A stretch of DNA of 16,867 bases from Candidatus Nanohalobium sp. GTDB lineage: Archaea; Nanohalarchaeota; Nanosalinia; Nanosalinales; Nanosalinaceae. The stretch covers positions 1 through 16,867 of the forward strand of contig JBDGSM010000024.1 in NCBI GenBank assembly GCA_042217545.1, in the 5' to 3' direction. Numbering within the stretch: position 1 is the stretch's first letter; every line of letters starts with the position of its first letter. The position numbers and the translations under genes are program-made. Of the stretch, positions 1-16,621 are shown piece by piece. A model generated the notes under the pieces. That model did no database searches. It was not told the origin of the DNA and saw only the letters and a program-made list of their open reading frames with translations.

Positions 1-125
1 TGTCCCCCGCAAATATTCCATGTTTGCTCTTTTCCTTTTTCCTGCTCCTGGAAAAAACTGTTTCTCTGAGTCAAGCTTCTCTAGTTGAAATCAAGTTTTT
101 AAGGCCTGACAGGTATTTCCGTGTT

Positions 126-419
126 ATGGTTGATGTAACTGTTTCGGAAGCGGAGGATGTGTTTGAGGAAGGTGAGAACTTTGTCGAGGGCATTGACCGT
201 GAGGGTGAGGAAGTTGAAGTTCTGAGGATCAGGCTTGACGATCTGCGGCATGAGCTGGAAAAGGAGTCCGGTAAGATAAGCGAAGCGACGAAAGATGTGA
301 AGGATCTTATGGAGGATATCGAGGAGGACTCTGTACATCAGGAGCCGGAGATGACGCCTGATGAAGGGAAGGAAGCCCGCGAGGAAGGGCCCCGGGACGA
401 AGAGTACTCCAACCGTTAA
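126..419 (+). CDS. Small, very acidic hypothetical protein (97 aa, probable coiled coil)
   Basis: Start moved to ATG 126 (MVDVTVSEAED...), about 25 nt after TTTTTAA (96-102). Asp/Glu-rich. Stop overlaps the convergent gene's stop (TTAA 416-419). Confidence 0.75.
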   Translation: MVDVTVSEAEDVFEEGENFVEGIDREGEEVEVLRIRLDDLRHELEKESGKISEATKDVKDLMEDIEEDSVHQEPEMTPDEGKEAREEGPRDEEYSNR

Positions 420-1477
420 GCTTCCTCAGTAAAGCTCCATTCCAGGCCTTCGTTGCCGTTTTTAACTATTATAGGAGGTTCTACCAGGTTTTCTGGTTCC
501 TGTGAGTTGAAGTTTCTTGGAGCGATGTCATTCGCTGATTCTGGGTAGAAGATCGACGCTATGGCATGTATGTGTTCTCTGCCTTTCGAAAGTTCGAACT
601 GGCCTCCGCCGTACATCTCTATCTCGTTGTTCAGACAGTACTCGATAGCATCAAGTAATTTTCTTATGCTGCCGAATCTTGAAGGTTTGATATTGATTTT
701 CCGTGGTTTGAACGGGAGTTTCTTGATCGAGCCGACGCTTGTGATCGGTTCGTCCCAGGTAATCCTTTCCCTCTCGTCTTCAAGGACAGGCCTTGTCTCA
801 TCGTTCAGGACAGGATCCTCGATCAGTGCGTCAGGAAAGTTCTCCACCATCTTCCTGTAAAGTTCTGGATCGGCTTCCTGGCGAACTTCTTCGTCCTCGT
901 AATGGCCTTTGAGGTCGATTATCCTGACTTTGCCGGATTCCGAGAGCTTCTGGACAAGTTCGTCGCCCCATTTACTTGTTGCGTCAAGCTTGAGGCCTAC
1001 ATCCGCCTGTTCCTGGATTTTCTGTACAGGTTCAATGCCTGGCGGGTTTCCGAGGCCTGGACTGGCGACAAAGTTCAGCGGACTGTATTCCCGGCCGAGT
1101 GCTTCTGCGAGGGAGATGCCTTTCTGTTTCAGTGCGAGGTCCAGTGCTGCGCTCTCGAAGGCCCAGGTCCTGTAGTTCCTGTAGTCCTCTCTTCCTGGTT
1201 CCTGTCCGAAAAAGAGGTCCTGGGGGCTGAGACGTTCCGAGAAGTCTTCCAGTGTATGGCCCTGGTCGAGTTCAAGCTCTCCTACGTGTTCCTGGAGTTT
1301 TTCGTGCTCCTCCTCGTCCCAGCAGACTTCTTCTCCGTAGCCTGTCTCCCCGAGGCCTTTGAGCTTGACCGTTGTGGTAACACGTTTGAAATCTTCGGAG
1401 ACCTGTTTCTCGTTCCTCTCAAGATCCACTTCCTTGACTTCAATGCTCAGCTCTTTCAGTTTCTCGTAAAGCTTCAT
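416..1477 (-). CDS. Enolase-superfamily (mandelate racemase/muconate lactonizing enzyme-like) protein, substrate unknown
   Basis: Capping-domain motifs GETGYGE and AFESAALDLALK. Barrel with candidate acidic metal ligands IIDLK, LIEDP and WDEP, plus INIKPSRFG. Confidence 0.8.
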   Translation of the reverse strand: MKLYEKLKELSIEVKEVDLERNEKQVSEDFKRVTTTVKLKGLGETGYGEEVCWDEEEHEKLQEHVGELELDQGHTLEDFSERLSPQDLFFGQEPGREDYRNYRTWAFESAALDLALKQKGISLAEALGREYSPLNFVASPGLGNPPGIEPVQKIQEQADVGLKLDATSKWGDELVQKLSESGKVRIIDLKGHYEDEEVRQEADPELYRKMVENFPDALIEDPVLNDETRPVLEDERERITWDEPITSVGSIKKLPFKPRKINIKPSRFGSIRKLLDAIEYCLNNEIEMYGGGQFELSKGREHIHAIASIFYPESANDIAPRNFNSQEPENLVEPPIIVKNGNEGLEWSFTEEA

Positions 1478-1520
1478 GGAAAAGAAAGAGGCCTGGAAAG
1501 GTTTAATGCCTTTACCCGGT

Positions 1521-2714
1521 CTACTGCTCCCTCATGAAATCGGTTATGACGTATCTTTCGACCTCGTCCTTGTAGTAGAGGTAGATCAACGCTACCGAGA
1601 TCGCAAGCATCAGGACCCCGATATACACGTAGAAGACTGTCACAGAGTAAATTATCGAGAGAGCCAGTAGAGGCCCTGCTACCAGGTTTTCAAGTATCAT
1701 GTACTTGATGAAGGTCCAGGTGTTGAACAGTCTCTCATTTGGTTCAAGGCCTGTAGTGTAGATAGCTACTGCCAGGTTGTAGACCGTTGCTGAGATTCCC
1801 GTTGCCAGCGAGATGAAGTAGTGCTGAGGATAGAACAGGTAAGATATGGATATGAAGACAACGGTTAAAGGCATCGTGATCGCCATGAAGGCCTCTTCTT
1901 TCCCTGTAAGTATCTTTTTCTTTCCCAGTGGCAGGTAGAGGTAGTCGTCAAGTTCGTCAAACCTGTTAAGCCAGTTGTAGACAGTAAGGTTCAACAGGCC
2001 TATCATAACGCTGTAGGAGATCAACGGATTGTTCAGGAGCACACGGGTCATGGGGAAGTAAAGGACCACGTACCAGTAGAACGCAGTCAGGAGGCCCAGG
2101 GAGAACAGTATCTTGAAAATGCCTCCTGAGGATCTCAGCACGTCCATAAGTGACTTGTCGGCGACGGTCTCCAGCTCCCTGATCCTGTCAAAGTTGAAAA
2201 GGTGTAGGGACGGTCCGTCAAGTGAAAACTGGGCCAGTACAAGGCCTGCTGCTATACCGCCGAGGAACGCAGGCAACATCATAGCTACCCCGAAAACCAC
2301 CTGAAACCCTGTTCCGATAAGAGCTGCTGCCCCGACAGGTACCAGGAACAGGCCTGCGTAGTAAGCTAGTTCTTTGACCACGAGCTGTGCAATTATCTTT
2401 CTCCTTGAGATTGGAAGAGTTCTGGAGGAGTATACGAGGTAGCTTGTGTCTCCGAGCACGTTTTTCCATGCATCTCTCCCTGAATAGTTCAGGTTACCTA
2501 TGCCCAGGCCTAGAAATGCTGCAACTATCATTACGGCTGTTCCTACTGATCCTGAGCCAAGTGTCGAGTAATTCGTGGTTGCGTAGGCGAATAGGAAGGT
2601 GAAGAGAAATATCATGACTGGGAATGCTGCAAAGTTCCTTCCCTTGTATAGTGTGGAGTGCATTCTCCACTCTTCTTTTATCATCCGCTTTACAAGGCCT
2701 GGCCTGTCTGTCAT
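1521..2714 (-). CDS. Polytopic membrane protein, probable ABC exporter permease
   Basis: 397 aa with many hydrophobic segments. ATGA overlap (2711-2714) with the upstream ABC ATPase. Confidence 0.75.
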   Translation of the reverse strand: MTDRPGLVKRMIKEEWRMHSTLYKGRNFAAFPVMIFLFTFLFAYATTNYSTLGSGSVGTAVMIVAAFLGLGIGNLNYSGRDAWKNVLGDTSYLVYSSRTLPISRRKIIAQLVVKELAYYAGLFLVPVGAAALIGTGFQVVFGVAMMLPAFLGGIAAGLVLAQFSLDGPSLHLFNFDRIRELETVADKSLMDVLRSSGGIFKILFSLGLLTAFYWYVVLYFPMTRVLLNNPLISYSVMIGLLNLTVYNWLNRFDELDDYLYLPLGKKKILTGKEEAFMAITMPLTVVFISISYLFYPQHYFISLATGISATVYNLAVAIYTTGLEPNERLFNTWTFIKYMILENLVAGPLLALSIIYSVTVFYVYIGVLMLAISVALIYLYYKDEVERYVITDFMREQ

Positions 2715-3382
2715 TCTTCTTCGAGGAATTTCTCTGTAAGGTTTTCAGGCTCCTCTATGACCTCCGTGACCTCTCCATTCTTCAGGAAGAAGACTCTGTC
2801 GCATATCTCCTCAGCCAGCGAGATAACGTGTGTGCAGAGAAATACTGTTCCTCCTGCCTCTCTTCTTGCCTTGAAAAGCTTCTTTGCCCGTTCCTGGATC
2901 ACGGGATCAAGGTTGACAAGTGGCTCATCGATGAAGACAAGATCCGGCTCATGGAACAGGGCCTGTATAATCATGAATTTCTGGCGTTCTCCCTTTGACA
3001 GGTTGTAGGTAAGTTTCTCCATCTTACCCTCCAGGTTGAACCTTTTCATCCAGTAATCCTTGTCTATCTCCTTGTCTCTAACATCGGCGACGAAATCAAG
3101 GTATTCCTCGCCTGTAAGAAAGCTTGGAGGATCCTCACGTTCAGGCAGAATACCCAGTTTTTCACGGAGCTCAACAGGACTCTCCTCGGGATCAAGGCCC
3201 AGAACATTTACCTCACCCGAATTCCTGTCGATCTGGCCCGTCAGTACCTGGACCAGCGTGGATTTGCCGGCCCCGTTCGCGCCAAGGATACCGACAATCT
3301 CACCTTCGTTAACTTCCATATCCACAGAGGTCAAGGCCTCAACATCGCCGTAGCTCTTAGCCAGCTCTTCAACTTCAATCAT
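2711..3382 (-). CDS. ABC transporter ATP-binding protein (exporter type), 223 aa
   Basis: Start moved to ATG 3382 (MIEVEELAKSYG). Walker A GANGAGKS, signature LSKGE, Walker B/D-loop VFIDEPLVNLD, H-loop CTH. Confidence 0.93.
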   Translation of the reverse strand: MIEVEELAKSYGDVEALTSVDMEVNEGEIVGILGANGAGKSTLVQVLTGQIDRNSGEVNVLGLDPEESPVELREKLGILPEREDPPSFLTGEEYLDFVADVRDKEIDKDYWMKRFNLEGKMEKLTYNLSKGERQKFMIIQALFHEPDLVFIDEPLVNLDPVIQERAKKLFKARREAGGTVFLCTHVISLAEEICDRVFFLKNGEVTEVIEEPENLTEKFLEEE

Positions 3383-3479: not shown

Positions 3480-4610
3480 ATGAAGAGACACCTGGACCTG
3501 GGAGACCGGGAGGTAACAGTAGTCGGGACCGCACACGTTTCCGGCGACAGCGTCAAGGAAGTCGAGGACACGATCAGAGAAGTAAGGCCTGACCTCGTGG
3601 GGATCGAACTCGATGAGGACCGTTTTGAATCGCTGAGAGATGAATCCGGCTGGCAGGACATGGATATAGTCGAAGCGATCAGGAACGGTCAGGGCGCCAT
3701 GCTGTTGATCAACCTCGTTCTATCCATATACCAGAGAAGAATGGGCCTTGAGCAGGGCGTCAAGCCAGGTACAGAACTAATGAAAGGTGTTGAAACTGCC
3801 GAAGAACTTGGTATAGAGTACAGACTTATAGACCGGGATATAGGCGAGACATTCTCGCGCATGCTGGCCGAACTAACTTTCTGGGAAAAGATCAAGCTAG
3901 TCGCAAGCCTATTCGTCGCTGAAGAGGAAATGGATGTCGAAGACCTGAAAGAAGACAACATGCTCAACACACTGGTCAAGGAACTCGGCGAGGAATTCCC
4001 AACAATAAAGAGAGTATTTCTGGACGAGAGAAACCAGTACATGGCCGAAAAAATACTTGAAGAAGATTTCGACCATGCAGTACTTGTCGTAGGAGCAGCC
4101 CACGTAGAAGGCCTTGCAGAATGCCTCGAAGAAGAGAAAGAATACCGCGAAAAAAACATAGATTCCGGTTTCCCATGGTTCAAAGTCCTGAAATACGGTT
4201 TACCAGTCTTCATAATCGCAGGCCTTGGATACAGCTTCTGGAGGATAGGATTCGAGACAGGAATACACGCAACAGGTTTCTGGGTGCTCAGCAACGGAAT
4301 CCTTGCACTCATCGGCGCATTGATCGCAAGATCCTCACCTGTAACCTGGGTAGTCTCATTCCTAGCAGCGCCTCTAACCTCGCTCGACCCCGCTCTAGGA
4401 GCAGGAATGGTCGCAGCATACGTTGAAGGAAAGGTAAGGCCTCCAACAGTCGGTGAGACAGAAGAGATTGCCTACGTCGAAAGATACAGGGACCTCTGGA
4501 ACAACCAGGTAGGTAGAATCCTGCTCACCTTCCTCTTTGTAACACTGGGAAGCGCCGCAGCCACCTTCATATCCGCGGGCTACATCGCCTCCCTGATATC
4601 AGGCCTCTGA
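3480..4610 (+). CDS. TraB/GumN (PrgY/Tiki-like) family protein with C-terminal membrane domain
   Basis: Motifs GTAHVS, VGIELD, KPGTELM, LIDRDI, LDERNQYMA and VVGAAH, followed by several transmembrane segments. Confidence 0.9.
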   Translation: MKRHLDLGDREVTVVGTAHVSGDSVKEVEDTIREVRPDLVGIELDEDRFESLRDESGWQDMDIVEAIRNGQGAMLLINLVLSIYQRRMGLEQGVKPGTELMKGVETAEELGIEYRLIDRDIGETFSRMLAELTFWEKIKLVASLFVAEEEMDVEDLKEDNMLNTLVKELGEEFPTIKRVFLDERNQYMAEKILEEDFDHAVLVVGAAHVEGLAECLEEEKEYREKNIDSGFPWFKVLKYGLPVFIIAGLGYSFWRIGFETGIHATGFWVLSNGILALIGALIARSSPVTWVVSFLAAPLTSLDPALGAGMVAAYVEGKVRPPTVGETEEIAYVERYRDLWNNQVGRILLTFLFVTLGSAAATFISAGYIASLISGL

Positions 4611-4649: not shown

Positions 4650-5252
4650 ATGGCAGACGAACAGGTTGGAAAACACAAGGGCGCGATTGAAACCCTAATG
4701 CATGAAAAGAAGGAACTTTCAAGACTTCTCCAGATCGTTAACTCACAGCTCCAGCAACACCTGGAAGCACTTGACGAAGCCGGGATCGATACTGATCAGT
4801 ATATCGAACAGCTTCAACAGGAAAGCCGGCAGAAACAGCAGAGACAGAGCCAGCAACAAAACAGAAACACTGGACGCTCCGAGAGCAGCAGATCTTCAGA
4901 AAACTCCAAAAGGCAGAGAAACAACAGCAGAACAGGAAACTCCAGTAGAAACCGGAAAAAAGGCAACCAGCGGCAGAACAGCTCTAAAACAGACAGCTCC
5001 AGGAACAAAAATAGGAGAAACACGGGAAAAAGCAACAGCAGGCGGAGGAACACCGGTAACTCGCAAAACAACAGTAGTTCAAGAAGTAGAAACCGGGGAA
5101 GTCAGAGGAACACCGGAACCAGAAGGAGGGGAGAGGGGGAAGGCCTTGACGAGGAAGATGTTGACAACTTCCTAGAGGGAGGAGACAGGACTGAAGAAGA
5201 GGAAGAAGACGAAAAAGGTTCAGGTAACAGGGATTTCAACCCTCTGAACTAG
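4650..5252 (+). CDS. Hypothetical protein: helical N-domain, long Arg/Asn/Ser/Gln disordered region, acidic tail
   Basis: TATA at the expected distance. The N-terminus (EQVGKHKGAIETLMHEKKEL) resembles a small DPANN family from memory, unverified. Repeated RNTG units. Confidence 0.75.
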   Translation: MADEQVGKHKGAIETLMHEKKELSRLLQIVNSQLQQHLEALDEAGIDTDQYIEQLQQESRQKQQRQSQQQNRNTGRSESSRSSENSKRQRNNSRTGNSSRNRKKGNQRQNSSKTDSSRNKNRRNTGKSNSRRRNTGNSQNNSSSRSRNRGSQRNTGTRRRGEGEGLDEEDVDNFLEGGDRTEEEEEDEKGSGNRDFNPLN

Positions 5253-5256
5253 GCCT

Positions 5257-5895
5257 TCAGTCCTTCATATACTTTTTCTCCCATCTGCTTATCCTTTTCT
5301 CCCAGTTGGATACCTCCACCTCATCCTCATCATCTTCTCCCGAGAAGAAAGGTTTTTCACGGAGCCTGTAGCCTATTATGCCTCCTGCGACGATGCCCAT
5401 AAGATGGGCCTGGTAGGCGATATGCGCATTCCCGGTAATTCCTGCAAAGTTTATCAGCAGGTAGCCGAGCAGCACCATGTACATTGGAGCAGGTATTCCA
5501 AATACCAGGCCTATCTGGTTAGGCCTCAGAACCGATAGAGCAGCCAGTATGCCCATCGCTCCTCCGGAAGCCCCTATTATGTAGGAGTTAGGGAAGAAGA
5601 TGAATGCTGCAAGGTTTGCAAACAGTGCTGAGATCAGGAAGGTCCTGTAAAACTGGATTTCAGATGTATGTAGCTCGTAGATTGATCCAAATAGGGCAAT
5701 GAAAAATATATTGTTGAAGAGGTGGTCCGGACCTGCGTGTGCCATGAAGGACGTGAAAAACTTCCAGAAAGGTGATTCAAAGGCCTTATAAGCCAGATCA
5801 AGGTTGTAGAAATACTGTAGGCCGTAGATCAGTGACAGAACGGCGGAAAGCTTGATTGCTCCGTAGTTGAATTTCTGGAAGTCTTCCTTTTTCAT
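5257..5895 (-). CDS. Rhomboid-family intramembrane serine protease
   Basis: HLFNN (HxxxN), catalytic GASG and AHLMG motifs, multiple TM helices. ATGA overlap with the upstream methyltransferase. Confidence 0.92.
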   Translation of the reverse strand: MKKEDFQKFNYGAIKLSAVLSLIYGLQYFYNLDLAYKAFESPFWKFFTSFMAHAGPDHLFNNIFFIALFGSIYELHTSEIQFYRTFLISALFANLAAFIFFPNSYIIGASGGAMGILAALSVLRPNQIGLVFGIPAPMYMVLLGYLLINFAGITGNAHIAYQAHLMGIVAGGIIGYRLREKPFFSGEDDEDEVEVSNWEKRISRWEKKYMKD

Positions 5896-6503
5896 CTTTC
5901 TCTTGGTGTTGCGAAGACCCAGAAATGGGTTTCATCCCTGTAATTCTCCGTGTATGTTTCGATGATTTCGAAACCTGCTTCCCTGAGAAGCTGAAGATTT
6001 TTCTCCGGCGAGTAAGAGCTCCAGAGCATCTCCTGGCCTCCGATCTCGCCTTTATGCATCTCCATCTCCTCAGGTCCCAGAGTGATGAGCACTGCGCCTT
6101 CTTCCTGGACCCAGTCCCTGATCTTCTCGAAGAGCCTGGAGTGTTCCTCCCGGGGAATATGGAAGATTGCGTAGAAACTTACGATAGCTCCGAAAGAACC
6201 ATCCTCAAAGTCCTGGTCGAAGAAATCTCCCTGAACGAACTCGGCACCAGGAACGTTTTCACGTGCCTGAACCACGTGTTTCTCCGAGATATCAACGCCC
6301 AGAACTTCAAGGCCTTTATCCGCCAGGAAACGGTCGAAAGGAAGGCCTGTACCGCATCCAAGATCAAGGATACGGGAATTTTCAGGAAGATGCTTGAAAA
6401 GATTGTTAAAGAGCTTTCTTTCTTTCTCCCTGATGTCTCTGCCTTCTCTGTAATCAGATTCGTAGTCTCCTTCCTCGTAGCCTTTCTTTACCTTGTCTCT
6501 CAT
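5892..6503 (-). CDS. Class I SAM-dependent methyltransferase
   Basis: Motif I ILDLGCGTG, GVDIS, FVQGD, and FGAIVSFYAIFH. ATGA overlap with lysS. Confidence 0.9.
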   Translation of the reverse strand: MRDKVKKGYEEGDYESDYREGRDIREKERKLFNNLFKHLPENSRILDLGCGTGLPFDRFLADKGLEVLGVDISEKHVVQARENVPGAEFVQGDFFDQDFEDGSFGAIVSFYAIFHIPREEHSRLFEKIRDWVQEEGAVLITLGPEEMEMHKGEIGGQEMLWSSYSPEKNLQLLREAGFEIIETYTENYRDETHFWVFATPRER

Positions 6504-8107
6504 ACTTCCACCTCTTCCAGTATATTGACTGATTCCTCGAGGCCTATAGACATCAGGAGCGTTGAAAGCCGTGGTCCCTGATCTCTGGAAAGGAATACCT
6601 GATAAGCAGTATCGAAGAACTCCCCTGTATCGAGCTCTGAGTCATCTTTTACCGCAAAGATCTCTCCATCAAGCTCCTCGGAGTCCTCAAAGCTCTCAGT
6701 TTCCAGCAACTCCTTCAGAAGCTTCAGGGCCCCCACCTGCGGTTCTGAAAGATTTTCAATCACCTGTTCAGGAACTTCATAGTTTATCTCGAACCTGTAG
6801 TCCTCGGGAGCGTACTCCCGTGCCCAGTTCTTGGCCCTCCTCATCCTGTCCAGAACCTGCTGTCTGCCTTTCTCCGAAATATCTTCCTGGAGATGGCCGG
6901 TCTGCTGTAGAACTTCAAGGCCTTTACCTTCCCATTCGTCTTCCGGGACAGTCTGGGCTATAAGCGAGGCATGCTTGAAAGGAACTCTTACCGGCTGCTC
7001 CTCAGGCGTCTCCACCATCGCAAGCTCGTAGACTCTTTCCTGATGCCTCTGCTTTTTCTCGTTGTCCATCTCAGCCGGGTTGAAGTAATGACCTTCTATC
7101 CTGTCAAACCTGTCGTAGATCTGGATGATCTCCTCGTCAAACGCCAGGTTGATAACCTTCTTAGGCTTCGTCTGCGAAAACAGGAATCGGATCATCTCAG
7201 GCGAATAGATCTCCTTCATATCTTTCAGGCGGAGAGTATTTTCACCCGAACTGGATGAGATCTTCTTGTCACTTCCTTTAGGCCTTACAAAGTCGTACAT
7301 CTGGTACACAGGTGCTTCCGCATCGTAGACCTGTTCTATTATCTGTTTACCTGTATCTCGGGAACTTCCTGCTGCCGAGTGATCCTTTCCCCCGGGTTCG
7401 AAGCTTACGTTCTCGAAGAACCATCTCATTGGCCAGTCAACCCTCCACGGCGGCTTTACAGAATCATTCTCCTTGAAATTTATCTCGAACTCTTCACCGC
7501 ATTCCTCACAGTGGTACTCTACCGTGTATTCTCCGTCATAGGCCTTGATCTCGGTGAAGTCTTTCTCACATTCCTTGCAGTAGACTCTGAGGGGCATCCA
7601 GTCCTCTTCAAGTTCCTCCTGCCTGTACTGGTCGAGTATCTCCTTGATCTCTTCCCTGTGGTTCATCGCTTTCTTGATCAGGTCCGCATACTTCGAGGCC
7701 CGGAACATTTCTGATTGTCGGATGAACTCGATATCCATATGCATGTCCTCCAGCTCTTCCTCCAGCTGTTTCTCGAAGTGTTCAGCGTAACTGTCGTGAC
7801 AACCTTCTGGATCAGGAACCTTTGAGAGTGGAAGCCCTATGTATTTCTCGAACTCATCTGGAACATTTTCAGGCACTTTCCTGAAACGGTCGTAGTCGTC
7901 CCATGAGTAGATGAAACGTGTTTCCTCATCGTAATATTTGAGACTTTTCACGACGAAATCCGTTGTAATTATCTCCCTGAAGTTTCCGATGTGAACGAAA
8001 CCTGAAGGACTGATCCCTGAAGCGCAGACATAGGTTTCGCGGTCGGAGAACTTTCTCTTAACCCCGTATGCCAGCTGATCTGACCAGAACAACGGCTGTT
8101 CACTCAT
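6500..8107 (-). CDS. lysS: Lysine--tRNA ligase, class I
   Basis: SGISPSGFVHIGN (HIGH), SWDDYDRFRKVP, two CxxC, WRVDWPMRW, EPGGKDH, KISSS (KMSKS-like), C-terminal QGPRL. Confidence 0.97.
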   Translation of the reverse strand: MSEQPLFWSDQLAYGVKRKFSDRETYVCASGISPSGFVHIGNFREIITTDFVVKSLKYYDEETRFIYSWDDYDRFRKVPENVPDEFEKYIGLPLSKVPDPEGCHDSYAEHFEKQLEEELEDMHMDIEFIRQSEMFRASKYADLIKKAMNHREEIKEILDQYRQEELEEDWMPLRVYCKECEKDFTEIKAYDGEYTVEYHCEECGEEFEINFKENDSVKPPWRVDWPMRWFFENVSFEPGGKDHSAAGSSRDTGKQIIEQVYDAEAPVYQMYDFVRPKGSDKKISSSSGENTLRLKDMKEIYSPEMIRFLFSQTKPKKVINLAFDEEIIQIYDRFDRIEGHYFNPAEMDNEKKQRHQERVYELAMVETPEEQPVRVPFKHASLIAQTVPEDEWEGKGLEVLQQTGHLQEDISEKGRQQVLDRMRRAKNWAREYAPEDYRFEINYEVPEQVIENLSEPQVGALKLLKELLETESFEDSEELDGEIFAVKDDSELDTGEFFDTAYQVFLSRDQGPRLSTLLMSIGLEESVNILEEVEV

Positions 8108-8246: not shown

Positions 8247-9509
8247 ATGATCGGAGTTAGCCCCCGCCTGATCTTTCTAGCACTGTTCATAGCAGGCCTT
8301 GCTTACCTGCTCTACCGCGACAGGGATAAAATCCAGAGAAGCTCGATACTTTTCTACCGCAGAACAAAAAACGGGATAAACCGGATAAAAGCGATACAGT
8401 CAAGATTCCCCCGTTTCTGGAAGGCCTACGGCTGGGCCGCAGCGATCTCAGGCGTTCTGTCGATGATTCTCGCTGCTCTCTACATCGGTGGGAAGTTCGT
8501 AGATGTCTTCAGCACAGGCTCCGTGAAGAAGGCAGGCCTCTCATTTGTCGCGCCAGGCCTTGTTTCACATAGCAGTTTTCAGCCAGGTATCTCGTTCATC
8601 CCTGTTGAGTACTGGCTTATCGGCGTTGGAATAGTGATGACAGTCCACGAACTAAGCCATGGCATCGTCGCCCTGAGTGAGAACTTCGAGATCAACTCCG
8701 TAGGCTGGATCGTCCTCGGCATATTTCCCGGCGCCTTTGTAGAGCCTAAAGGTGAGAGGATGCTTCCAGCAGGTGAAGGCGAGGAAGAGGAGTTCCACCA
8801 CGAAGAAGACGGGGAAAGCTCAGGAATGTGGGACCAGGGAAAGCTCTCCTCCAGGATAAAGGTCCTTGGAGCCGGAAGTTTTGCCAACTACCTCACAGCT
8901 TTAATCATGATACTGCTCTCAGGCTTTGTACTATCCATGGTTGCACATCCAGGGCAGATATACTACACGACTGTGCCTAACCAGTCCGCCTCTGGCGCAG
9001 GCATGACCAACGGAACGCTGAACAGTATAAATGGTAACAGGATAGACAACGTAAGCGAACTCCAGAAAACCACCGCAGGCCTGAAACCAGGCGACAACAT
9101 CGTACTGAACACCAGTGAAGGAGTATTCAACGTCAAAGCTGGTAAAAGGACCTACCAGCCAACTATTGGAATCCCCGGCATATTCACAGTACCGAAAGGC
9201 CCTGAGAAGACAGAAGGATACATAGGAATGCAGTTCTACCAGAGCTCCGTGATAAATCAAGGCCTGAAACCTTATCAGGCAGGTCTGAGCTGGTTTATCT
9301 CGCTCCTGCAGACCATAGCAATACTGAACCTGGGAATAGGTTTGATCAACATGCTGCCCCTGAAACCTCTTGACGGAGGACAGATAATGGGCGGTGTCAT
9401 CGAGAACTACCTGGGCGAATCAGCGTCAAAGGCCTTCAACTACTTCTCGGGGCTTGGAATGCTGGCACTGATAGGTGTAATCCTTCTATCCGTGGCTACG
9501 GCCCTCTGA
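8247..9509 (+). CDS. Site-2 protease family (M50) intramembrane zinc metalloprotease with PDZ-like insert
   Basis: HELSH (HExxH), GAFVEP, AGSFAN, and NMLPLKPLDGG (NxxPxxxxDG). Confidence 0.93.
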   Translation: MIGVSPRLIFLALFIAGLAYLLYRDRDKIQRSSILFYRRTKNGINRIKAIQSRFPRFWKAYGWAAAISGVLSMILAALYIGGKFVDVFSTGSVKKAGLSFVAPGLVSHSSFQPGISFIPVEYWLIGVGIVMTVHELSHGIVALSENFEINSVGWIVLGIFPGAFVEPKGERMLPAGEGEEEEFHHEEDGESSGMWDQGKLSSRIKVLGAGSFANYLTALIMILLSGFVLSMVAHPGQIYYTTVPNQSASGAGMTNGTLNSINGNRIDNVSELQKTTAGLKPGDNIVLNTSEGVFNVKAGKRTYQPTIGIPGIFTVPKGPEKTEGYIGMQFYQSSVINQGLKPYQAGLSWFISLLQTIAILNLGIGLINMLPLKPLDGGQIMGGVIENYLGESASKAFNYFSGLGMLALIGVILLSVATAL

Positions 9510-10877
9510 TCATCCCTCTTCTTTATCGAGGCCGTCCATGTCTTCTATCTCTTCTCTTACTTCTTCCTCTTCCTCCTCAACTTCTTCCTCCACGTCCTTT
9601 ACTTCTTCCTCTATCTCATCTCTCTCGAAGTAGAGAAGTTCAGCCGATATCACACCTATCGCAATGAGGATCACAGAACTGAATACTTCAGGTTCTGCAG
9701 TCCGCAGATGGTAGAGCAGTGCAAGAACAGTTGAAACAGATCCCACGAAGCCCAGAAGAGGAACAGCTCTCGTAACAAGAGAATCGCCCTCCCTGAACGC
9801 CAGGAAGCTTACAGCACCGAAAATAGTGATGAAAGCCAGGGAAGCAAACGACGTTATCGCATTAAGACTTCCCAGGACAGTGAAAGCAGCTGTGAGGCCT
9901 CCCAGTGCGAGAAGCGATTTCACTGGTTCGTCCCCGGATCCACGGAGCTCGGCAGGAAGAAGCTTATCTGAAACCAGCTTCCTGGAAAGACGGGCCGAAC
10001 TGAAAAGCGTGGCATTGATCGCACTCCCTGTAGAGAAAAGAGCAGCCAGGGAAATAAGTACGAATCCTACACTCCCCAGGAAAGGCTTTGCAGCTATTGC
10101 GAGCGCGGTCTCGGCGTTTTTCGCAATTACCGATGGGGTCAAAAGATTAGTGGTGACGACCGCAACTATGACATACAGAAAAGTAGCGATCAGGATAGAA
10201 GCATATATAGCCTTCTTCAATGTCTCCTCGGCATTCCTGAGCGAATCCTGGTCGAACAAAAGGAGTTCCCAGCCCTCGAAAGCCACAAAGGAAATTGCTG
10301 CAGCGATCAGGGGGCCGAAACCGAAGTTTGCAAAGCCAAGGCCTATCATGCCATGTGTGAAGCCATAGTAAAGGCCTCCAAGCCCGAATACCAGAAGTAT
10401 AATGACTTTGAGAAGTACAAGTATGTCTTCAGTCTCCCCTGATGCGTGGGCCCCCAGAACGTTCAGCCCTACAAATATTACAACGACGAGGAGAGATATT
10501 ACAGGCCTTAACGGGAATCCCAGCACGTGCTGTATACCTGCAAGTTCTTCGAAGTAGCCTCCGAAGGCAAAGGCGTACATCGCCATAGTCCCTATGTATC
10601 CGAAGAGGAATGTCCAGCCCGTCATACCTGCAAGTTCCTTACTTCCCGTGAACTTGTGGATAAAAGTGATGGGGCTGTCCTTGCCTTCTGTCAGACTGTT
10701 GAGACGTATCATGGAGTATCCTGAGGCCAGTGCTATGACTCCTGAAACGATAAATGCCATCCAGGCCAGCGGTCCTGCAGAGCTGGCGACTACGCCAAGT
10801 ACGGCGAAGATTCCACCTCCAACCATTCCTCCGACTGCCATGGATACAGCTTCCTTCAGTCCTACCTTCTGACTCAT
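9510..10877 (-). CDS. APC-family amino acid permease
   Basis: TM1 motif AVGGMVGGGIFAVLG, TM6 FVAFEGWE, about 12 hydrophobic segments, acidic C-terminal tail. Confidence 0.92.
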   Translation of the reverse strand: MSQKVGLKEAVSMAVGGMVGGGIFAVLGVVASSAGPLAWMAFIVSGVIALASGYSMIRLNSLTEGKDSPITFIHKFTGSKELAGMTGWTFLFGYIGTMAMYAFAFGGYFEELAGIQHVLGFPLRPVISLLVVVIFVGLNVLGAHASGETEDILVLLKVIILLVFGLGGLYYGFTHGMIGLGFANFGFGPLIAAAISFVAFEGWELLLFDQDSLRNAEETLKKAIYASILIATFLYVIVAVVTTNLLTPSVIAKNAETALAIAAKPFLGSVGFVLISLAALFSTGSAINATLFSSARLSRKLVSDKLLPAELRGSGDEPVKSLLALGGLTAAFTVLGSLNAITSFASLAFITIFGAVSFLAFREGDSLVTRAVPLLGFVGSVSTVLALLYHLRTAEPEVFSSVILIAIGVISAELLYFERDEIEEEVKDVEEEVEEEEEEVREEIEDMDGLDKEEG

Positions 10878-12227
10878 TCTATCTCCTCCTCAAAGCTCTC
10901 AACTTCTTTTTCGACTTCCTCCACTTCCCCTCTCTATCCTGTTTCTCTCGAAGTAAAGGAACTCAAGGCCTATTATCGCGAGGAATATGCCTGTGATGCT
11001 GGCAAGCATGTGTGGGGCTGTGTCGCCCACAGATGCCAGAGCAGCAGCGGAAGCGCAAACAAAGTGCCTAAAAGGCCTATCAACGGTATCAACCGGTTCT
11101 CAGTGACCTCGTTGTCCAGCAGGCATACAGTATTTACAGCTGCGAAGACAGGTGTATAAAAGCCACGGATGCAAACGTGCTGATCTGCTCCAGGCCGCCC
11201 ACAGCAGTGAAAGCTGCCATTAAAAATCCTATTATCAGGAGGCTTTTCGTTGGCACTCCGTTACTGTTCCTGAAGGAGAAAACCTGAGGTAGCTCTTTCT
11301 CCGTAGCGATCTTATGAGAAAGTCTTGCATTCCCGAACAGGGTCGCATTTATCGCCGAAGCCGTCGAGAAAAGAGTGGCCACAGAAATAAGGATGTATGA
11401 AATCCCATTCATCACATGTAACGTGAAAATCTTCTGAGCGGCAAAGGCAAGAGCTGTCTCCTTATGAACAACGATCTGATCTGCGGTCAAAAGATTTGTG
11501 GTCACGAACGACACAAGGATATAGATAAGCGTGGCTGCGACAATTGAATAGTAAACAGCTTTCCTCAGAGTGGAAATGCCGCCACGGATTTCGGAGCACT
11601 CATAGGTAAGAAGTTGAAAACCCTGGAAAGAAACAAATATCACGGCAGCACCGACAAACATCGAGGAAAATCCTTTATTGAAAAGGCCTCCTGCGAAAAC
11701 ATTGAAGTCTGGCTGGCTGAAGATGCCCAGAGACCAAGGCCTCAACAGGATCAGGATCATAACTTTTACGTACACAAGTACGTCCTCGCTGATCCCGGAA
11801 CTGCTGGTTCCAAGGAAGTTAATAGCGATGAACAGGCCTATAACAGCAACTGAGATCAGCGGACGGATTAGAGCCGAGGCCTGGAAACCAAGTATTCCTG
11901 CGGCGAACGATCCGAAGGCGTAGGCGTACATAGCGGCACTTCCTATATATCCTACGATCAGTATCCATCCTACGACGCCCGCATAGTTTTTGTTGGACAT
12001 GAAATGCTCAAGGAACGTGAAAGATCCTCCGTCCTCCTTGAGATGTTCTGTAAGCTCTACATACTAGTAACCTGAGGCCAGGGCGATCACCCTATCAAAA
12101 AATACGATATAAACGCCGCGTTACCCACCTTTTGAGCGGCAACGCCGAGTACAGCAAATATTCCGCCGCTAATAAGGCCTCCGAGCCCCATTGCTACTAC
12201 TTCTTTCAGACCCAATTTTTCTGCCAT
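10874..12227 (-). pseudogene. Degraded APC-family permease, tandem paralog of the downstream gene
   Basis: ATG 12227 gives MAEKLGLKEVVAMGLGGLISGGIFAVLG. Frameshift near 12090, in-frame TAG at 12066-12064, and further frameshifts near 11150, 11010 and 10930. Ends EFLYFER...EEEIE-TGA overlapping the next ATG. Confidence 0.88.
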
Positions 12228-12284
12228 ATTAAGTTATTACGGTCTCGTTTATCTTAAAATCTCTTCACCGGCTTCCCTCAAGCG

Positions 12285-12290
12285 TTTTTA
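12285..12290 (+). promoter_or_regulatory. TATA-like box for ferredoxin
   Basis: TTTTTA ending 25 nt before ATG 12315. Confidence 0.45.
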
Positions 12291-12314
12291 TTCTTCAGGC
12301 CTCCATAACCAGTT

Positions 12315-12620
12315 ATGACGCATAAAATCAAACTTGTGGACCAGGATGAAGAGGTGGAAGCAGAGGACGGCCAGACAGTCTTGAACGCACTGCTGGAAGG
12401 GGGAGTAGAATGGATGCACGCCTGCGGTGGTTTCTGCAACTGCACAACCTGCCGTATAAAAGTTGAAGAAGGCATGGAAAACCTCTCCGAGCAGAAACAG
12501 GACGAGAAAAATACGATAAGACGTTTCAAGGGCAAGGAAAAACTTGAAGGCCCTTTCAGACTCAGCTGCCAGACTAAGGTCTACGGCGACATCAAGATCT
12601 CAGAACCGGAATGGTACTAG
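12315..12620 (+). CDS. 2Fe-2S ferredoxin, adrenodoxin/ISC-Fdx-like
   Basis: HACGGFCNCTTC (C-x5-C-x2-C) and distal RLSCQ. Confidence 0.9.
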   Translation: MTHKIKLVDQDEEVEAEDGQTVLNALLEGGVEWMHACGGFCNCTTCRIKVEEGMENLSEQKQDEKNTIRRFKGKEKLEGPFRLSCQTKVYGDIKISEPEWY

Positions 12621-12638
12621 AAAGAGAGGCTAAGAAAT

Positions 12639-13721
12639 TTGCTTGATGTAATGATTGTAGGCGGCGGACCTGTAGGCTCCCAGCTCGCGAAAAAATTCCG
12701 TGAAAAATCCGGGGAAGACCTCGATGTACTTGTAATCGAACGCAGCGAGGAGATCGGCGAACCGCTCGCGTGTTCCGGACATGTATCGCCGGACATCAAA
12801 AATTTTCTATCTGAAGAGGAGTTCGAGGAGATCTACCAGAACGAGATAAGAGGTGCCCGGTTCCACGTATCAGGGAAAAACTACGAGTTCTTCAAGAAAG
12901 ATGAGACCGTCTCATACGTGATCAATAGGATCGGACTGGACAAAATCAAGGCCGAACAGGCAAGGGATGCGGGTGCCGAATACAACCTCGATGAAACAGT
13001 TGAGGAAGTAGAGGAAAAAGATGATTGCGTGAAAGTTTCTACTGACAGAGGAAAGTACGAGGCGAAAGTTCTAGCGGGCTGTGATGGAGCCTCTTCAAAA
13101 GTTAGAGATGAAGTCGGGCTGGAGGAGCCGGATCATTTCTACCAGGGAATCCTCTGTTTTACTGAAGAGAAAGATTCTTCTGATTTTGTCGATGTCCTGA
13201 TGGATGTACCGGAGTTTTTCGGCTGGCGGATACCACGTTCTGATTCAGTTGAGTACGGTGCAGGTGTGCCGAAAGGTGAGAACACGATGAAGTGGCTGGA
13301 CGAGGTAACCGAAAAATTTGATATAGAAAAAGAAAAGAGGAGAAACGTCTGTGCCGGTGCGATACCTATCGGGCCACCGGAAAGAGTGACAAGTGACCGG
13401 GTTTTCCTGGTCGGCGATGCTGCGGGCCAGACCAAGCCGTTCACAGGCGGCGGAATACTCTACGGTATGCGTGCAGCTACCATCGCAGCGCGCGAGATCG
13501 ACCCAGAGGAACCTGATCTACAGGAGTATGAGGATGCGTGGCGTTCCGAGTTGAGGAATGAGATTCTGCTGGGTAAGTTTATCGAGCGGATCTATTCGAT
13601 GCCGTCCCCCGTTCAGATGCTGGGCATGGGTTTGTTCGAAGGGGAGATAGGCGTCCATATGGACCGCCCCACGACGTTACTGAGCGTTGAGCAGCTGAAA
13701 GCGATGCTTCCCTGGAGCTAG
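12639..13721 (+). CDS. Geranylgeranyl reductase family FAD-dependent oxidoreductase
   Basis: IVGGGPVGS Rossmann motif, PLACSG, GCDGASSKV, FFGWRIP, and FLVGDAAGQTKPFTGGGI. TTG start after GAGG. Confidence 0.88.
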   Translation: MLDVMIVGGGPVGSQLAKKFREKSGEDLDVLVIERSEEIGEPLACSGHVSPDIKNFLSEEEFEEIYQNEIRGARFHVSGKNYEFFKKDETVSYVINRIGLDKIKAEQARDAGAEYNLDETVEEVEEKDDCVKVSTDRGKYEAKVLAGCDGASSKVRDEVGLEEPDHFYQGILCFTEEKDSSDFVDVLMDVPEFFGWRIPRSDSVEYGAGVPKGENTMKWLDEVTEKFDIEKEKRRNVCAGAIPIGPPERVTSDRVFLVGDAAGQTKPFTGGGILYGMRAATIAAREIDPEEPDLQEYEDAWRSELRNEILLGKFIERIYSMPSPVQMLGMGLFEGEIGVHMDRPTTLLSVEQLKAMLPWS

Positions 13722-13778
13722 GAGGTATAAAAAGCTTTCAGGGAATACTCTTCGTAACGAGGGGAGAGTTGAGAAAAA

Positions 13779-14450
13779 ATGCACATTGGAGTTATTCCTG
13801 ATGGTAACCGTCGTTACGCACGTTCTCACGGCATCCAGAACTATGACGCTTACGAGGAAGCTAGAGACACTATAAAAAATGTTACTGACTCCCTGAACGG
13901 TTTCTCAGATGACCTGGAATCCATCACTTTTTACCTACTCTCCGAGGAGAACCTTGACCGGTCTAAGGAGGAGCTTGAGACTCTTTTCGATCTACTTGAA
14001 CAGAACATAGACGATATGGCAGAGTTCTTCCAGGGGAAGGATTTCAATGTAAACTGGGCGAGCACCAATCCTGATCCTCTCCCGGACGGTCTGAAGGATA
14101 AGCTGAGGAAAATAGAGGACAGATTCTCAGGCGGTGACACTAGGGTCAACCTGCTTATCTCGTACGATGGAAAAGAGGATATACTCGAAGCAGGGGAGGA
14201 GGTAGCTGCTAACGGAGAAAACTTCAACCGTAAAGATTTCTCGACCCATCTACAGATCCAGCAGGATATAGACTTCGTCATCAGAACAGGCGACAATCCA
14301 GACCGTGAATGCCTGTCCGGTTTCCCGATCTGGAACGCCAGCTACGCCGAGTTCTACCACATCAAGAAGAACTTCCCGGCGGTACAGCCGGAGGACGTAG
14401 AGGAAGCCCTCGGCCACTTCAAAAAACTTAGAAGGAAGAAAGGCGAATAA
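13779..14450 (+). CDS. uppS: cis-prenyltransferase (undecaprenyl/polyprenyl diphosphate synthase family)
   Basis: HIGVIPDGNRRYA, LSEENLDRS, SYDGKEDI, DIDFVIRTG, and LSGFPIWNASYAEF. Confidence 0.85.
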   Translation: MHIGVIPDGNRRYARSHGIQNYDAYEEARDTIKNVTDSLNGFSDDLESITFYLLSEENLDRSKEELETLFDLLEQNIDDMAEFFQGKDFNVNWASTNPDPLPDGLKDKLRKIEDRFSGGDTRVNLLISYDGKEDILEAGEEVAANGENFNRKDFSTHLQIQQDIDFVIRTGDNPDRECLSGFPIWNASYAEFYHIKKNFPAVQPEDVEEALGHFKKLRRKKGE

Positions 14451-14456
14451 TCCCTT

Positions 14457-14564
14457 ATGGTCGACATGACCTGCTGGAACTGCAGCCAGACTATGGAAAA
14501 ATACGTTGCCTGTGAACTCAAATGCATGAACTGCGGCATGGTCAGAGACTGCAGCGATCCCTAA
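14457..14564 (+). CDS. 35-aa Cys-rich zinc-finger microprotein, HVO_2523-like (MVDMTCWNCSQTMEKYVACELKCMNCGMVRDCSDP)
   Basis: Manual translation, not in the ORF track. Starts 6 nt after the uppS stop. CxxC...C-x3-CxxCG...DCSD pattern. Family name is from recall. Confidence 0.8.
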   Translation: MVDMTCWNCSQTMEKYVACELKCMNCGMVRDCSDP

Positions 14565-14656
14565 TCTCCTGTCTCTACTCTCTGATCCGTACAATTATTG
14601 CATAAAGCAAAGAACGTCTTGTTACTGCATCCTTCTTTGTAACACTCCTTGAACAA
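14561..14656 (-). CDS. Putative 31-aa Cys4 microprotein (MFKECYKEGCSNKTFFALCNNCTDQRVETGD)
   Basis: Manual translation. TTG start preceded by GAGTGA (SD-like). C-x4-C-x8-CxxC. TAG overlaps the convergent TAA (CTAA 14561-14564). TTTAAA at 14711-14716 upstream. Confidence 0.55.
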   Translation of the reverse strand: MFKECYKEGCSNKTFFALCNNCTDQRVETGD

Positions 14657-14800
14657 CAGGGATCACTCTCGTTAAGCAGGCCTCTGTCCAGATAAGGAAA
14701 CCCCAACCAATTTAAACCGAACACATCCACTCAGCAAAAAATTTCTTCCAGAAAAACTTCACCCAACCCATTTAACCATTGCAGTCACCAGAAGTTAGGT

Positions 14801-15940
14801 ATGAAAACCTGGCTCATCACCCTACTTGTCGCAGGAGGTATCATAGCAGGCGGAGCAGGATACCTGGCGTTCACATTCCAGAAACCAAGCTTCGGAGTAA
14901 TAGACAAGGGAGACTGGGGCCAGGTAAACGACCAGACAATAAAGATCAACTCCACGGTCTGGCTGGACAACCCGAACGTCATAGGCCTACCACTCGGATT
15001 CGTACACGCAGGATACGCCGCCAACGCCAACAACATCACTCTAGCGGAAGGCGACATCAACGGCATCAACATAGAAACAGGAAACCAGACAAAGAGCTTC
15101 ACAACAACCGTGGAACAGGGAAAAATACCTGACTGGTGGGTCAGCCACCTCAAAAACGGCGAAAAAAGCACTATAACAGCAACAGTAAACGTAGATCTAC
15201 CTCTCGGAAGCTTCAAGACACAGGCCTTCCGGAAAAACATACAGACAAACATAACAAACAGGATAGAGAAAAGCCTGGCATCACTCGAAGGAACATACAA
15301 AGGACCCGGGATACAGAGAAGCGCAGGCCCTATCACTGCAACTGTAAGGCCTGAAATCCAGGTTAAAGACTTCAAGGTTTCCTGGGGCAAGATAACATCC
15401 AAGAAATCAAACATTTTAATGGATGTCACACTCTACAATCCAAACGCCTACCCGATACCGACGCCAAGCTTCGCAGGAAACGCCAAGCTCAACAACGTCA
15501 CTGTAGCGGACTGGAACGCAAACCCACAGGCCCTCACAGACCTTCCAGAAGACGGCATGATCCCGCCAAAGCAGTCGACAGATGTCAGATTCAAGGCCTC
15601 ACTTCTGAACCAGAAAATGGACGAATGGTTCGAGACACACGTCAAGAGAGGAGAGCACACGAAGGGGAGAATAAGAGCAAACCTGGTCTTCGACTTTGAG
15701 GGAAGACAGTTCAAAGTACCGGCAGGAGGCATCCTCTGCAAGATGAACATCCAGACAGCAGTACTCGTCGACAACCAGAAGAACAAGTTCGAAAACAAGG
15801 GGTGCAAACCAAGACTTGAAGGATACAGCTCCCTCCCTACAGGAACCGGAGACAACAATACCTCAACGTCCATAGGCAACCAGAGCCTGCCTGACAACAC
15901 TACAAAACAGGATCTCCTCAACTCCGGAGCACTCCAGTAA
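14801..15940 (+). CDS. Membrane-anchored LEA type 2 (WHy) domain protein, two domains
   Basis: N-terminal hydrophobic anchor. Two NPN motifs (LDNPN, LYNPNAYPI). Beta-rich with many N-x-S/T sequons. Confidence 0.8.
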   Translation: MKTWLITLLVAGGIIAGGAGYLAFTFQKPSFGVIDKGDWGQVNDQTIKINSTVWLDNPNVIGLPLGFVHAGYAANANNITLAEGDINGINIETGNQTKSFTTTVEQGKIPDWWVSHLKNGEKSTITATVNVDLPLGSFKTQAFRKNIQTNITNRIEKSLASLEGTYKGPGIQRSAGPITATVRPEIQVKDFKVSWGKITSKKSNILMDVTLYNPNAYPIPTPSFAGNAKLNNVTVADWNANPQALTDLPEDGMIPPKQSTDVRFKASLLNQKMDEWFETHVKRGEHTKGRIRANLVFDFEGRQFKVPAGGILCKMNIQTAVLVDNQKNKFENKGCKPRLEGYSSLPTGTGDNNTSTSIGNQSLPDNTTKQDLLNSGALQ

Positions 15941-16043
15941 AAAAGGTCCTAGACACCAACACATTCTTAAAGGTTGGCCTGATTATTCTTAGTTGCGGTC
16001 GAGTGAATACTTTTCGACCCACCACCAGAAAATATTTATTTTG

Positions 16044-16060
16044 TTATCACGAAGTGATAA
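16044..16060. promoter_or_regulatory. Palindromic operator candidate TTATCAC-N3-GTGATAA
   Basis: Perfect 7-bp inverted repeat between an AT-rich box (16031-16040) and ATG 16062. Confidence 0.55.
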
Positions 16061-16061
16061 T

Positions 16062-16250
16062 ATGAACATGTCAGAAGACGCAATCAAGGAATGTCCTTAC
16101 TGTGGCGAAACCTTCGAGGGGGAGGACGCGATCACAAATGAAGGAATTCACAGAGCAGAGGAACACGTGAACCAGAACGAATCCACGGCAAAGGCGACCA
16201 AAGGCCAGAATATCGTGGACGAGTGGAAGTCAGAAGGAAAGAAGGCCTAG
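16062..16250 (+). CDS. Small C2H2-type zinc-finger protein
   Basis: CPYCG-x14-HRAEEH. Start at ATG 16062 or 16068 rather than TTG 15993. Confidence 0.75.
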   Translation: MNMSEDAIKECPYCGETFEGEDAITNEGIHRAEEHVNQNESTAKATKGQNIVDEWKSEGKKA

Positions 16251-16339
16251 AAGCTTTCTGACTGGAAGACTGCCTCCCTTAATTCTTCTTTATTAACCTC
16301 GGCGACACTTTAAAACTTCTCAACCACATAAAACCATGC

Positions 16340-16621
16340 ATGGACATACTAAGCCTTCTAATCGGACTAATCGTAGGCGCAATACTTGGAGTAATAGGCA
16401 GCCTCTACTACATCAAATGGAAAATGAACCAACAACTCGGCCAGATGCAACAGGAAATGAGCGAAATGATGGAAGCCACACAGGGCCTACAGGACGGCCT
16501 CGGCGGCATCGAAGACCTCGAAAAAGAATCACCTGACACCATGAAAGACGTCATAGAACCGGAAAACGTCAAAGAAGAGGCCTCAGAAAAAGACTCCGAA
16601 GAACAAGAGGAAAAGAAATAA
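16340..16621 (+). CDS. Hypothetical single-pass membrane protein with Gln/Met-rich helix and acidic tail
   Basis: N-terminal TM helix (LLIGLIVGAILGVIGSLYY). TTTAAAA 16309-16315 lies 25 nt upstream. Confidence 0.75.
   Translation: MDILSLLIGLIVGAILGVIGSLYYIKWKMNQQLGQMQQEMSEMMEATQGLQDGLGGIEDLEKESPDTMKDVIEPENVKEEASEKDSEEQEEKK

Follow-up and report, generated by a model that had tools for sequence, protein, structure and literature searches.

AGGCCT sites in the window

The stretch of DNA analysed here (the window; 16,867 nt from Candidatus Nanohalobium sp., contig JBDGSM010000024.1) opens contig C17 of a 1,032,751-base draft genome (G000; 82 contigs, 92% complete), and its most conspicuous feature is the palindrome AGGCCT, of which 57 copies lie between positions 102 and 16583 (3.4 per kb). 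Every start listed in an earlier reading of the letters alone (the first-pass annotation) is exact and there are no others, whereas the enrichment of about 14-fold given there is real but too large: dinucleotide shuffles of the window (n=200) contain 5.41 copies on average (standard deviation 2.18, maximum 11), so that the excess corrected for composition is approximately 10.5-fold.

As had also been noticed, the sites occupy genes on both strands, all three codon phases and intergenic DNA; 50 of the 57 are located inside called genes (8, 11 and 31 in phases 0, 1 and 2, respectively), with the remaining seven outside genes or across gene ends. The phases are illustrated by three plus-strand sites that agree with the open reading frames, namely 3585..3590 (phase 0, AGG CCT, encoding Arg-Pro in the gene 3480-4610), 8422..8427 (phase 1, xAG GCC Txx, in the gene 8247-9509) and 4109..4114 (phase 2, xxA GGC CTx, encoding X-Gly-Leu, the most frequent coding context). 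A further plus-strand site (5251..5256) overlies the stop codon of the gene 4650-5252, and across the whole genome 72 of 946 stop codons overlap a site in this way. The tightest pair in the window (5507..5526) has starts 14 bp apart, a spacing that is depleted genome-wide.

The minus-strand gene at 6500..8107, which we take from recognition of its sequence to be a class I lysyl-tRNA synthetase (LysRS), has its best named matches in nanohaloarchaea (78-83% identity) and served as the query with which related loci were fetched. Positions 9510-12087 hold a tandem pair of related amino-acid permeases, the second of which (11095..12087, minus strand) is truncated and retains four sites (11684, 11737, 11834 and 11877); its description as a pseudogene is plausible, since it is shorter than its 466-residue orthologue. 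A site-free stretch of 2.4 kb (12303..14677) spans three genes with 4 codon contexts able to hold AGGCCT, none of which is used.

A genome-wide force acting on DNA

In the source genome as a whole there are 3,699 copies of AGGCCT (3.58 per kb), distributed over all 82 contigs at 1.3-5.9 per kb, and the signal is therefore not confined to the window. With a first-order Markov model the observed count is 13.0 times that expected (2.5 times for the next palindrome), and with a second-order model 5.1 times. Coding sequences, as defined by our own gene caller (1,113 genes), contain 3,211 sites, compared with at most 646 in 20 synonymous shuffles that keep the proteins fixed, and a further 458 are found in 109,023 non-coding bases, which bears out the earlier contention that protein coding alone does not explain the excess. 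In fact, most contexts that can accommodate the site do so (556 of 737 for Arg-Pro, 398 of 467 for Glu-Gly-Leu and 176 of 217 for Lys-Ala-Ser). Relative to variants at least 2 bases removed, and with background codon use taken from contexts unable to form GGCC, the enrichment in the three phases is 39-, 27- and 50-fold in the source genome and 44-, 42- and 34-fold in the complete genome G019, in comparison with 0.8, 0.7 and 0.4 in the low-density genome G021. In spacers of 20-600 bases of the source genome it is 20-fold; this independence of reading frame (27-50-fold in the three phases), together with the presence in non-coding DNA, is a characteristic feature of the highly iterated palindromes (HIPs).

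Site occupancy (0.65-0.72) is flat across gene conservation. Counts in structural RNAs are 0 sites in 2,553 tRNA bases and 0 in 1,814 bases of the 16S region of G019, and one in 1,742 bases of the 16S region of the source genome. The longest gaps in G019 (up to 13.4 kb) fall in a region containing an integrase-bearing island. A plain periodogram of the G019 sites, which differs from the method of PMC5861425, has its peak at 38.8 kb with a value of 6.1 among 524 frequencies, a chance level. The excess is also present in the single-contig genomes G001, G003, G019 and G054, and contigs from the probable source runs read through sites unbroken, which disposes of a library or assembly artefact. Several other words are scarce in the source genome, among them CTAG (0.24), CTAA/TTAG (0.33) and CCAA/TTGG (0.46); a CTAG methylase was not found there.

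The excess of AGGCCT is thus real and strong, and the site is placed nearly wherever genes allow, yet copies seldom stand side by side.

Consequences for proteins and conservation of sites

The proteins themselves are reshaped by AGGCCT, as shown by counts of the peptides concerned in 530 orthologue trios from G000, G019 and G021, which are 344, 281 and 189 for Arg-Pro, 223, 152 and 88 for Glu-Gly-Leu and 528, 372 and 288 for [KEQ]A[FYCWS], in comparison with 53, 42 and 52 for the control Asp-Gly-Leu, which cannot hold the site; the force acts at the DNA level. When the source genome is compared with the loci of its closest high-density relatives (8,371 aligned residues, 79% identical), fourfold-degenerate positions match at 0.905 inside sites and 0.464 outside. 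Furthermore, sites encoding the same peptide are shared in 62 of 68 cases with these relatives and in 14 of 447 with G021. The sites are hence conserved above the synonymous background, partly through high occupancy in both genomes. Within the population, represented by contigs of the probable source only, the main contigs show 7 differences, none inside a site, too few to give the comparison any power.

Interference between neighbouring sites

Under a null model that keeps the opportunities (codon contexts able to hold a site) fixed, closely spaced pairs are deficient. In the source genome 70, 85 and 109 pairs are separated by 6-18, 18-30 and 30-42 bases, compared with expectations of 111±8, 133±7 and 129±8, and in G019 the same bins contain 29, 43 and 53 pairs versus 53±6, 60±6 and 59±6. 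Pooled over pairs of opportunities, co-occupancy follows 1-0.80(±0.11)exp(-d/27.5±4 bp), on which a ripple of 10-10.5 bp is not significant (13 periods tried). Consistent with this, enrichment in the source genome rises with distance from the nearest site, from 5.9-fold at 6-12 bp (21 of 52 contexts filled) through 12.7-, 14.2-, 21.5- and 31.5-fold to 34-36-fold (36-fold at 60-150 bp), and in G019 from 2.7-fold (5 of 28) to approximately 30-fold. An adjacent site in the source genome therefore halves the force on a logarithmic scale without cancelling it. Common words occur together more often than expected over this range (1.3-1.6), and the other palindromes of G019 show no dependence on spacing. 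A cost of hairpins or repeats was rejected as the cause of the spacing, given that other palindromes do not repel one another in G019 and G021; the first bins of the same control in G000 are spoiled by runs of N.

Also significant is the behaviour of one-base variants. In G019 spacers, variants at the outer bases are enriched 2.7-4.1-fold and those at inner bases 0.5-0.9-fold, while in spacers of the source genome the values are 2.0 for AGGCCC, 1.5 for AGGCCG and 0.8 for AGGCCA. The strictness of the outer-base preference differs between lineages. The outer variants avoid real sites at 6-25 bp (0.40-0.51 in G019; 0.65 for AGGCCC in the source genome), whereas inner variants and controls do not, the inner variants remaining near 1 irrespective of distance. 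AGGCCN variants that are both enriched and repelled by real sites therefore behave as weak targets of the same reader rather than the debris of lost sites. AGGTCT/AGACCT is raised 2.4-4.5-fold in coding contexts of the source genome; in its spacers the neighbours derived from T:G mispairs are not depleted (AGGTCT 1.10-fold, AGGCTT 1.06-fold).

Distribution among Nanohaloarchaeota

The excess is shared by 13 of the 70 genomes surveyed across the phylum Nanohaloarchaeota, which carry 0.95-4.75 sites per kb (densities use rounded genome sizes), compared with 0.04-0.69 per kb in the remaining 57. These high genomes comprise all members of genera g1 (3/3), g18 (3/3) and g21 (5/5) and 2 of 6 in g2. 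Among 160 LysRS loci, five exceed 1 site per kb, namely L280 (Ca. Nanosalina sp. VS9-1, 104 sites in 21.6 kb), L283 (archaeon SG9, 99 sites), L288 (the metagenome-assembled genome (MAG) NHA29, 94 sites) and the metagenome loci L205 and L227; the three named records belong to the same collection as the 70 and are not additional genomes.

A single clade of high genomes is rejected by NucS (p 0.007), EF-2 with NucS (p 0.019) and RadC (p 0.003), and is not rejected by EF-2 alone (approximately unbiased (AU) test, p 0.118), in a comparison that lacks G000, G013, G025, G027 and G028. The 13 therefore probably do not form one clade, a reading from the trees that EF-2 by itself does not enforce. Intermediate genomes exist, with ratios of site to distant variants in the compared loci of 11 in G042, 4.4 in G051 and 2.7 in G050/G052; the low members of g2, like G047, stand at 1.8 and the remaining low loci at 1.0. 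Close relatives live without the sites, and presence or absence varies within one genus; the pattern may reflect either an old trait that was lost several times or one that was gained repeatedly.

No other strong HIP-like word was found in 16 samples (2-20 kb) of low genomes. The best was ACCGGT in 20 kb of G011 (6.5-fold on 12 copies), and a mild excess of CCGG (1.9-2.4-fold) in the low-genome loci L176 (G011), L175 (G017) and L183 (G015) would be compatible with a weaker second word. Among the matches listed in a scan for viruses (at least 120 stretches) there was no nanohaloarchaeal virus, and the 15 loci inspected had non-acidic proteins. Two of the records, L450 (G070, 27,888 bases) and L463 (G073, a provirus, 27,544 bases), are tailed-phage-like and non-halophilic and contain 55 and 39 AGGCCT, respectively, and no TCCGGA, L450 being rich in CTCGAG and CGATCG as well; their bacterial hosts may show an AGGCCT excess of their own. 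In the related gut-phage-like contigs L404, L452, L474 and L444, AGGCCT stands in clusters between genes, which look like a conserved intergenic motif rather than a genome-wide signal.

The nucS-radC locus and a partly decayed relative

In the source genome radC lies head-to-head with nucS (C28:442-1116) and encodes a full-length RadC/UPF0758 protein (Pfam PF04002 and PF20582) with HhH and JAB domains and an HNHPS...D...DH metal motif, whose structure model matches PDB 2QLC and, weakly, the JAMM and deaminase folds. The gene is found, in some cases as pieces, in 12 of the 13 high genomes. The exception, G042, has no remnant of it at the syntenic locus and none elsewhere in the genome, and fills 8 of 37 contexts, compared with 157 of 207 in L288 and the loci of its genus taken together (Fisher p 5e-10). 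The proteins of G042 are still shaped for sites (12.5 contexts per 1,000 codons; 14.9 in the genus and 6.9 in the low pool), and 18 of its 29 empty contexts are a single base off (p 0.002 versus never-enriched genomes). This pattern, in one genome and over 10 kb, reads as decay after the force had stopped.

RadC residue 145 is N, D, E or R in 9 of 12 high and 0 of 30 low genomes; as a diagnostic position it was rejected when its score fell from 0.90 in 21 genomes to 0.68 in 41. The gene trees suggest that genes of the nucS-radC-rpoH locus have passed between genera. NucS of L551 (G051) groups with genus g1, and RadC of L553 (G002) with genus g20.

Candidate genes examined

A search for NucS was positive in 29 of 30 genomes and one for MutS (MutS_V) in none of five single-contig genomes. 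In a screen of 1,062 G019 proteins, 87 had a match in G000 but at most a weak match in G021; the 83 of these that were scanned include no DNA methylase, Vsr or glycosylase, although the Vsr family itself was not searched. Small open reading frames and gene-tree outliers among the 530 orthologues, as well as about a dozen scanned from the 195 proteins found only in G019, provided no candidate. The membrane OB-fold protein, DnaG and HhH-GPD proteins do not track the trait, nor do UDG (59 of 70 genomes) or NucS, by either presence or residues. An HD-domain protein adjoins an OGG-like helical protein (weak Pfam match, E 0.008 for the G019 orthologue) at G000:C81:1966-3638, and the HD partner has no close match in G021.

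A proposed sequence-reading protein with short reach

The observations define a force of 30-40-fold that acts on DNA, is alike in all phases and in spacers, weakens next to an existing site and gives partial credit to AGGCCN. Since the variants are graded and the interference is local, a sequence-reading protein with short reach is indicated. The reading that we tentatively favour, with a probability of about 0.4, is that AGGCCT is the target of such a protein, with a reach of approximately 30 bp, and that the site is driven through biased short-patch repair of heteroduplexes; drive is preferred because a competing neighbour would be expected to dilute the bias, not cancel it, because the force does not reach far and because no mismatch nuclease other than NucS was found. 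A protein of this kind would recognise AGGCC(T) without a known methyl mark and act within a few helical turns. Mismatches between alleles or strands could arise by recombination, by conversion between chromosome copies or through replication errors, whereupon the strand bearing AGGCCT would be retained and copied over a very short patch of repair, a form of molecular drive, and a neighbouring site present on both strands would compete as a signal and so dilute the bias. The short reach fits cells in which NucS/EndoMS but no MutS was found. Elhai's model for HIPs predicts saturation near existing sites (PMC4390886), and the proposed scheme would amount to his ratchet without the methylase, reaching about 30 rather than about 1,000 bases.

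As reader or effector, RadC is a candidate and a lead only. It is listed among the tightest correlates of HIP1 in cyanobacteria (PMC13756078), and the accessible text of PMC3239186 gives no DNA sequence specificity for it. A doubtful extension of the favoured scheme would have RadC, with its deaminase fold, reading the palindrome and, together with NucS, biasing short-patch heteroduplex repair to the strand that carries it, in which case archaeal and cyanobacterial HIPs might share a methylase-independent engine whose target is set by the RadC allele.

Several observations weigh against drive by such a reader, and against RadC in that role. Equilibrium counts are the same for drive and for selection on a binding site, and the counts for interference in spacers alone are too small or uneven to tell. 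No gene exclusive to the high genomes was found, in a screen with G021 as its single low genome; G021 may itself have lost the site because of its restriction system. NucS has no diagnostic residue. RadC is encoded, some copies as pieces, in 34 of 37 low genomes of the family, where no relaxed constraint and no greater divergence is seen. Its alleles from high genomes are not one clade, the high genome G002 having the RadC nearest to that of low genomes, and control genes reach the column scores of RadC. A prediction written down from residue 145 proved wrong for G002 and for G045, the two high genomes not included beforehand. The contrast in G042 comes from that single genome and 10 kb, with radC alone considered among gene losses, and its excess of near misses is not significant relative to its own genus (p 0.15).

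Alternative explanations

Less likely, yet to be taken seriously, is selection for sites at which an abundant protein, chromosome-organising or protective in role, would bind with a footprint of 30-60 bp; each site would be mildly useful, and a second one within the same footprint would contribute less. The uniform density, the flat occupancy, the outer-base preference (graded as in protein-DNA recognition) and the footprint-sized interference are all consistent with this, there are 3-4 histone genes per genome, and HIP1 has been argued to serve chromosome structure (PMC5861425). The histones, however, are alike in high and low genomes and were rejected as discriminators; the interference is gradual rather than stepped and lacks a significant 10-10.5 bp ripple, no kilobase period stands out in G019, and close relatives manage without sites.

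The first-pass annotation had proposed a candidate HIP1-like system, with methylation-coupled repair as one possible origin. The description as HIP-like, genome-wide and not explained by coding holds for this nanohaloarchaeon, and a link to a cognate methylase and to one-way methylation-coupled repair is not supported: no C5, N4/N6 or D12 enzyme is common to the high genomes. C5 methylases occur in 1 of 13 high and 14 of 57 low genomes, D12 methylases above the cut-off in 2 of 70 (both low; 0 of 13 high), and strong N4/N6 matches number 9 among 41 genomes, one of them high (1 of 7 high genomes tested). A motif scan of G000 and G019, which alone covered type I/IIG and MT-A70 enzymes, revealed one type I-like and one type III-like enzyme in the complete G019, neither matched in G000. 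The sole PF01555 hit in the source genome was set aside as a Trm11-like tRNA methylase (THUMP region, DLPY motif). A ratchet coupled to methylation, its enzyme being unrecognised, supplied by the host or recently lost in each high lineage, is consequently improbable, the more so as MutS was not found (0/5) and the C-to-T products in spacers show no excess (1.06-1.10-fold). The methylase presumed to fit GGCC accompanies depletion. An NgoPII-family nuclease and a C5 methylase, 75% and 87% identical between two genera, occur in G021 (C1:840488-842407; L165) and G017 (L385); NgoPII-type systems target GGCC. These two genomes hold 97 and 73 AGGCCT sites, respectively, with GGCC at 0.44 and 0.36 of expectation; G021 additionally avoids ACGT (0.25). 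On the other side stand the intermediate genomes G042, G051 and G050/G052, the GC inside the site and the outer-base location of the deviations, as expected from Elhai's model (PMC4390886), and a proposed transfer of a methylase between a nanohaloarchaeon and its host (PMC11001535). One reported nanohaloarchaeal methylome (PMC11001535, PMC10266531) has GDGCHC as its sole motif.

Slightly less credible again is a DNA uptake or self mark, by which DNA bearing sites would be preferentially imported and recombined. In its classical form this suggestion of the earlier annotation is weakened, because ComEC was found in none of five genomes (three high, two low) and the interference extends over only about 30 bp, a range of 28 bp that would be far below that of usual uptake fragments. 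The reshaping of the proteome and the near-saturation do recall uptake sequences, G019 contains islands without sites, genes of the nucS-radC locus have apparently moved between genera, and HIP1 promotes the transformation of cyanobacteria according to work cited in PMC13756078. The SPEARE VirB4-like ATPase was rejected as a driver, as it occurs in 7 of 13 high and 20 of 57 low genomes and does not track the trait; the SPEARE-type locus of the source genome (C9:32587-59378) encodes a giant protein of 8,305 residues followed by a VirB4/HerA-like ATPase, with relatives in 27 of 70 genomes.

Finally, one-way very-short-patch repair of the Vsr/MIG type, codon or peptide preference and assembly artefact can together be given hardly any weight. 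In their favour are the UDG and HhH-GPD glycosylases, the scarcity of CTAG and CTAA and the raised AGGTCT/AGACCT in coding contexts. The inner one-base variants that such repair should deplete, however, are neither depleted nor raised in spacers and the interference is left unexplained, so that repair of this kind is largely refuted, while the excess outlives codon-fixed nulls and is present in spacers and in complete genomes.

Implications

As the first-pass annotation supposed, no description of AGGCCT in nanohaloarchaea was found in the literature, in a search of main texts that covered few subscription journals. For three decades there has been no settled account of how HIP1 arose or what it serves (PMC13756078). 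A HIP-type signal is here encountered in genomes of 1 Mb and about 1,100 genes, in which neither the methylase nor the MutS required by the main model was found. The presence or absence of the signal within one genus, together with partly decayed relatives, offers a simple system for finding the drivers of unexplained repeats, and the 28-bp interference provides a physical scale to which any protein put forward has to conform. RadC, which has no assigned function, becomes directly testable through the contrast in G042 and the cyanobacterial correlation; the search for the cause can thus start from a length scale, a relative in decay and a single testable candidate. By altering codons and amino acids alike, the force is relevant also to codon-based tests of selection and to binning and tree-building in the phylum.

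Comparison with known systems

The DNA uptake sequences of Neisseriaceae and Pasteurellaceae likewise fill most tolerable positions, reshape proteins and accumulate by drive, but they are longer and non-palindromic and need competence machinery, in contrast to the palindromic 6-mer with very short interference described here, for which ComEC was not found. The very-short-patch repair systems Dcm/Vsr and MthTI/MIG bias word counts, and a GGCC core is among their features, yet their effect is small and specific neighbours are depleted, whereas here the effect is 30-40-fold, the neighbours are not depleted and a partner methylase was not found.

The closest comparison is with cyanobacterial HIP1 (GCGATCGC) and the alternate HIPs. 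HIP1 is cyanobacterial and present at about 1 per kb in the figure cited by Elhai, compared with 2-4.7 per kb for the archaeal 6-mer; its local saturation extends over about 1,000 nt, here near 30 bp; and it has a cognate methylase and, in Elhai's model, requires MutS/MutL mismatch repair (PMC4390886), whereas neither a cognate methylase nor MutS was found here. HIP1 also displays a kilobase-scale periodicity (PMC5861425), of which the plain periodogram of G019 shows no clear counterpart. Because the methylase and MutS features are lacking, AGGCCT is not classed as a member of the cyanobacterial HIPs. It nevertheless shares with them a single palindrome containing GC that exceeds chance by far in all frames and in spacers (PMC4390886, PMC5861425, PMC13756078), deviations at the outer bases, conservation above the synonymous background, a patchy distribution in the tree, lowered counts where a cognate restriction system arrives, and the presence of radC in the genome.

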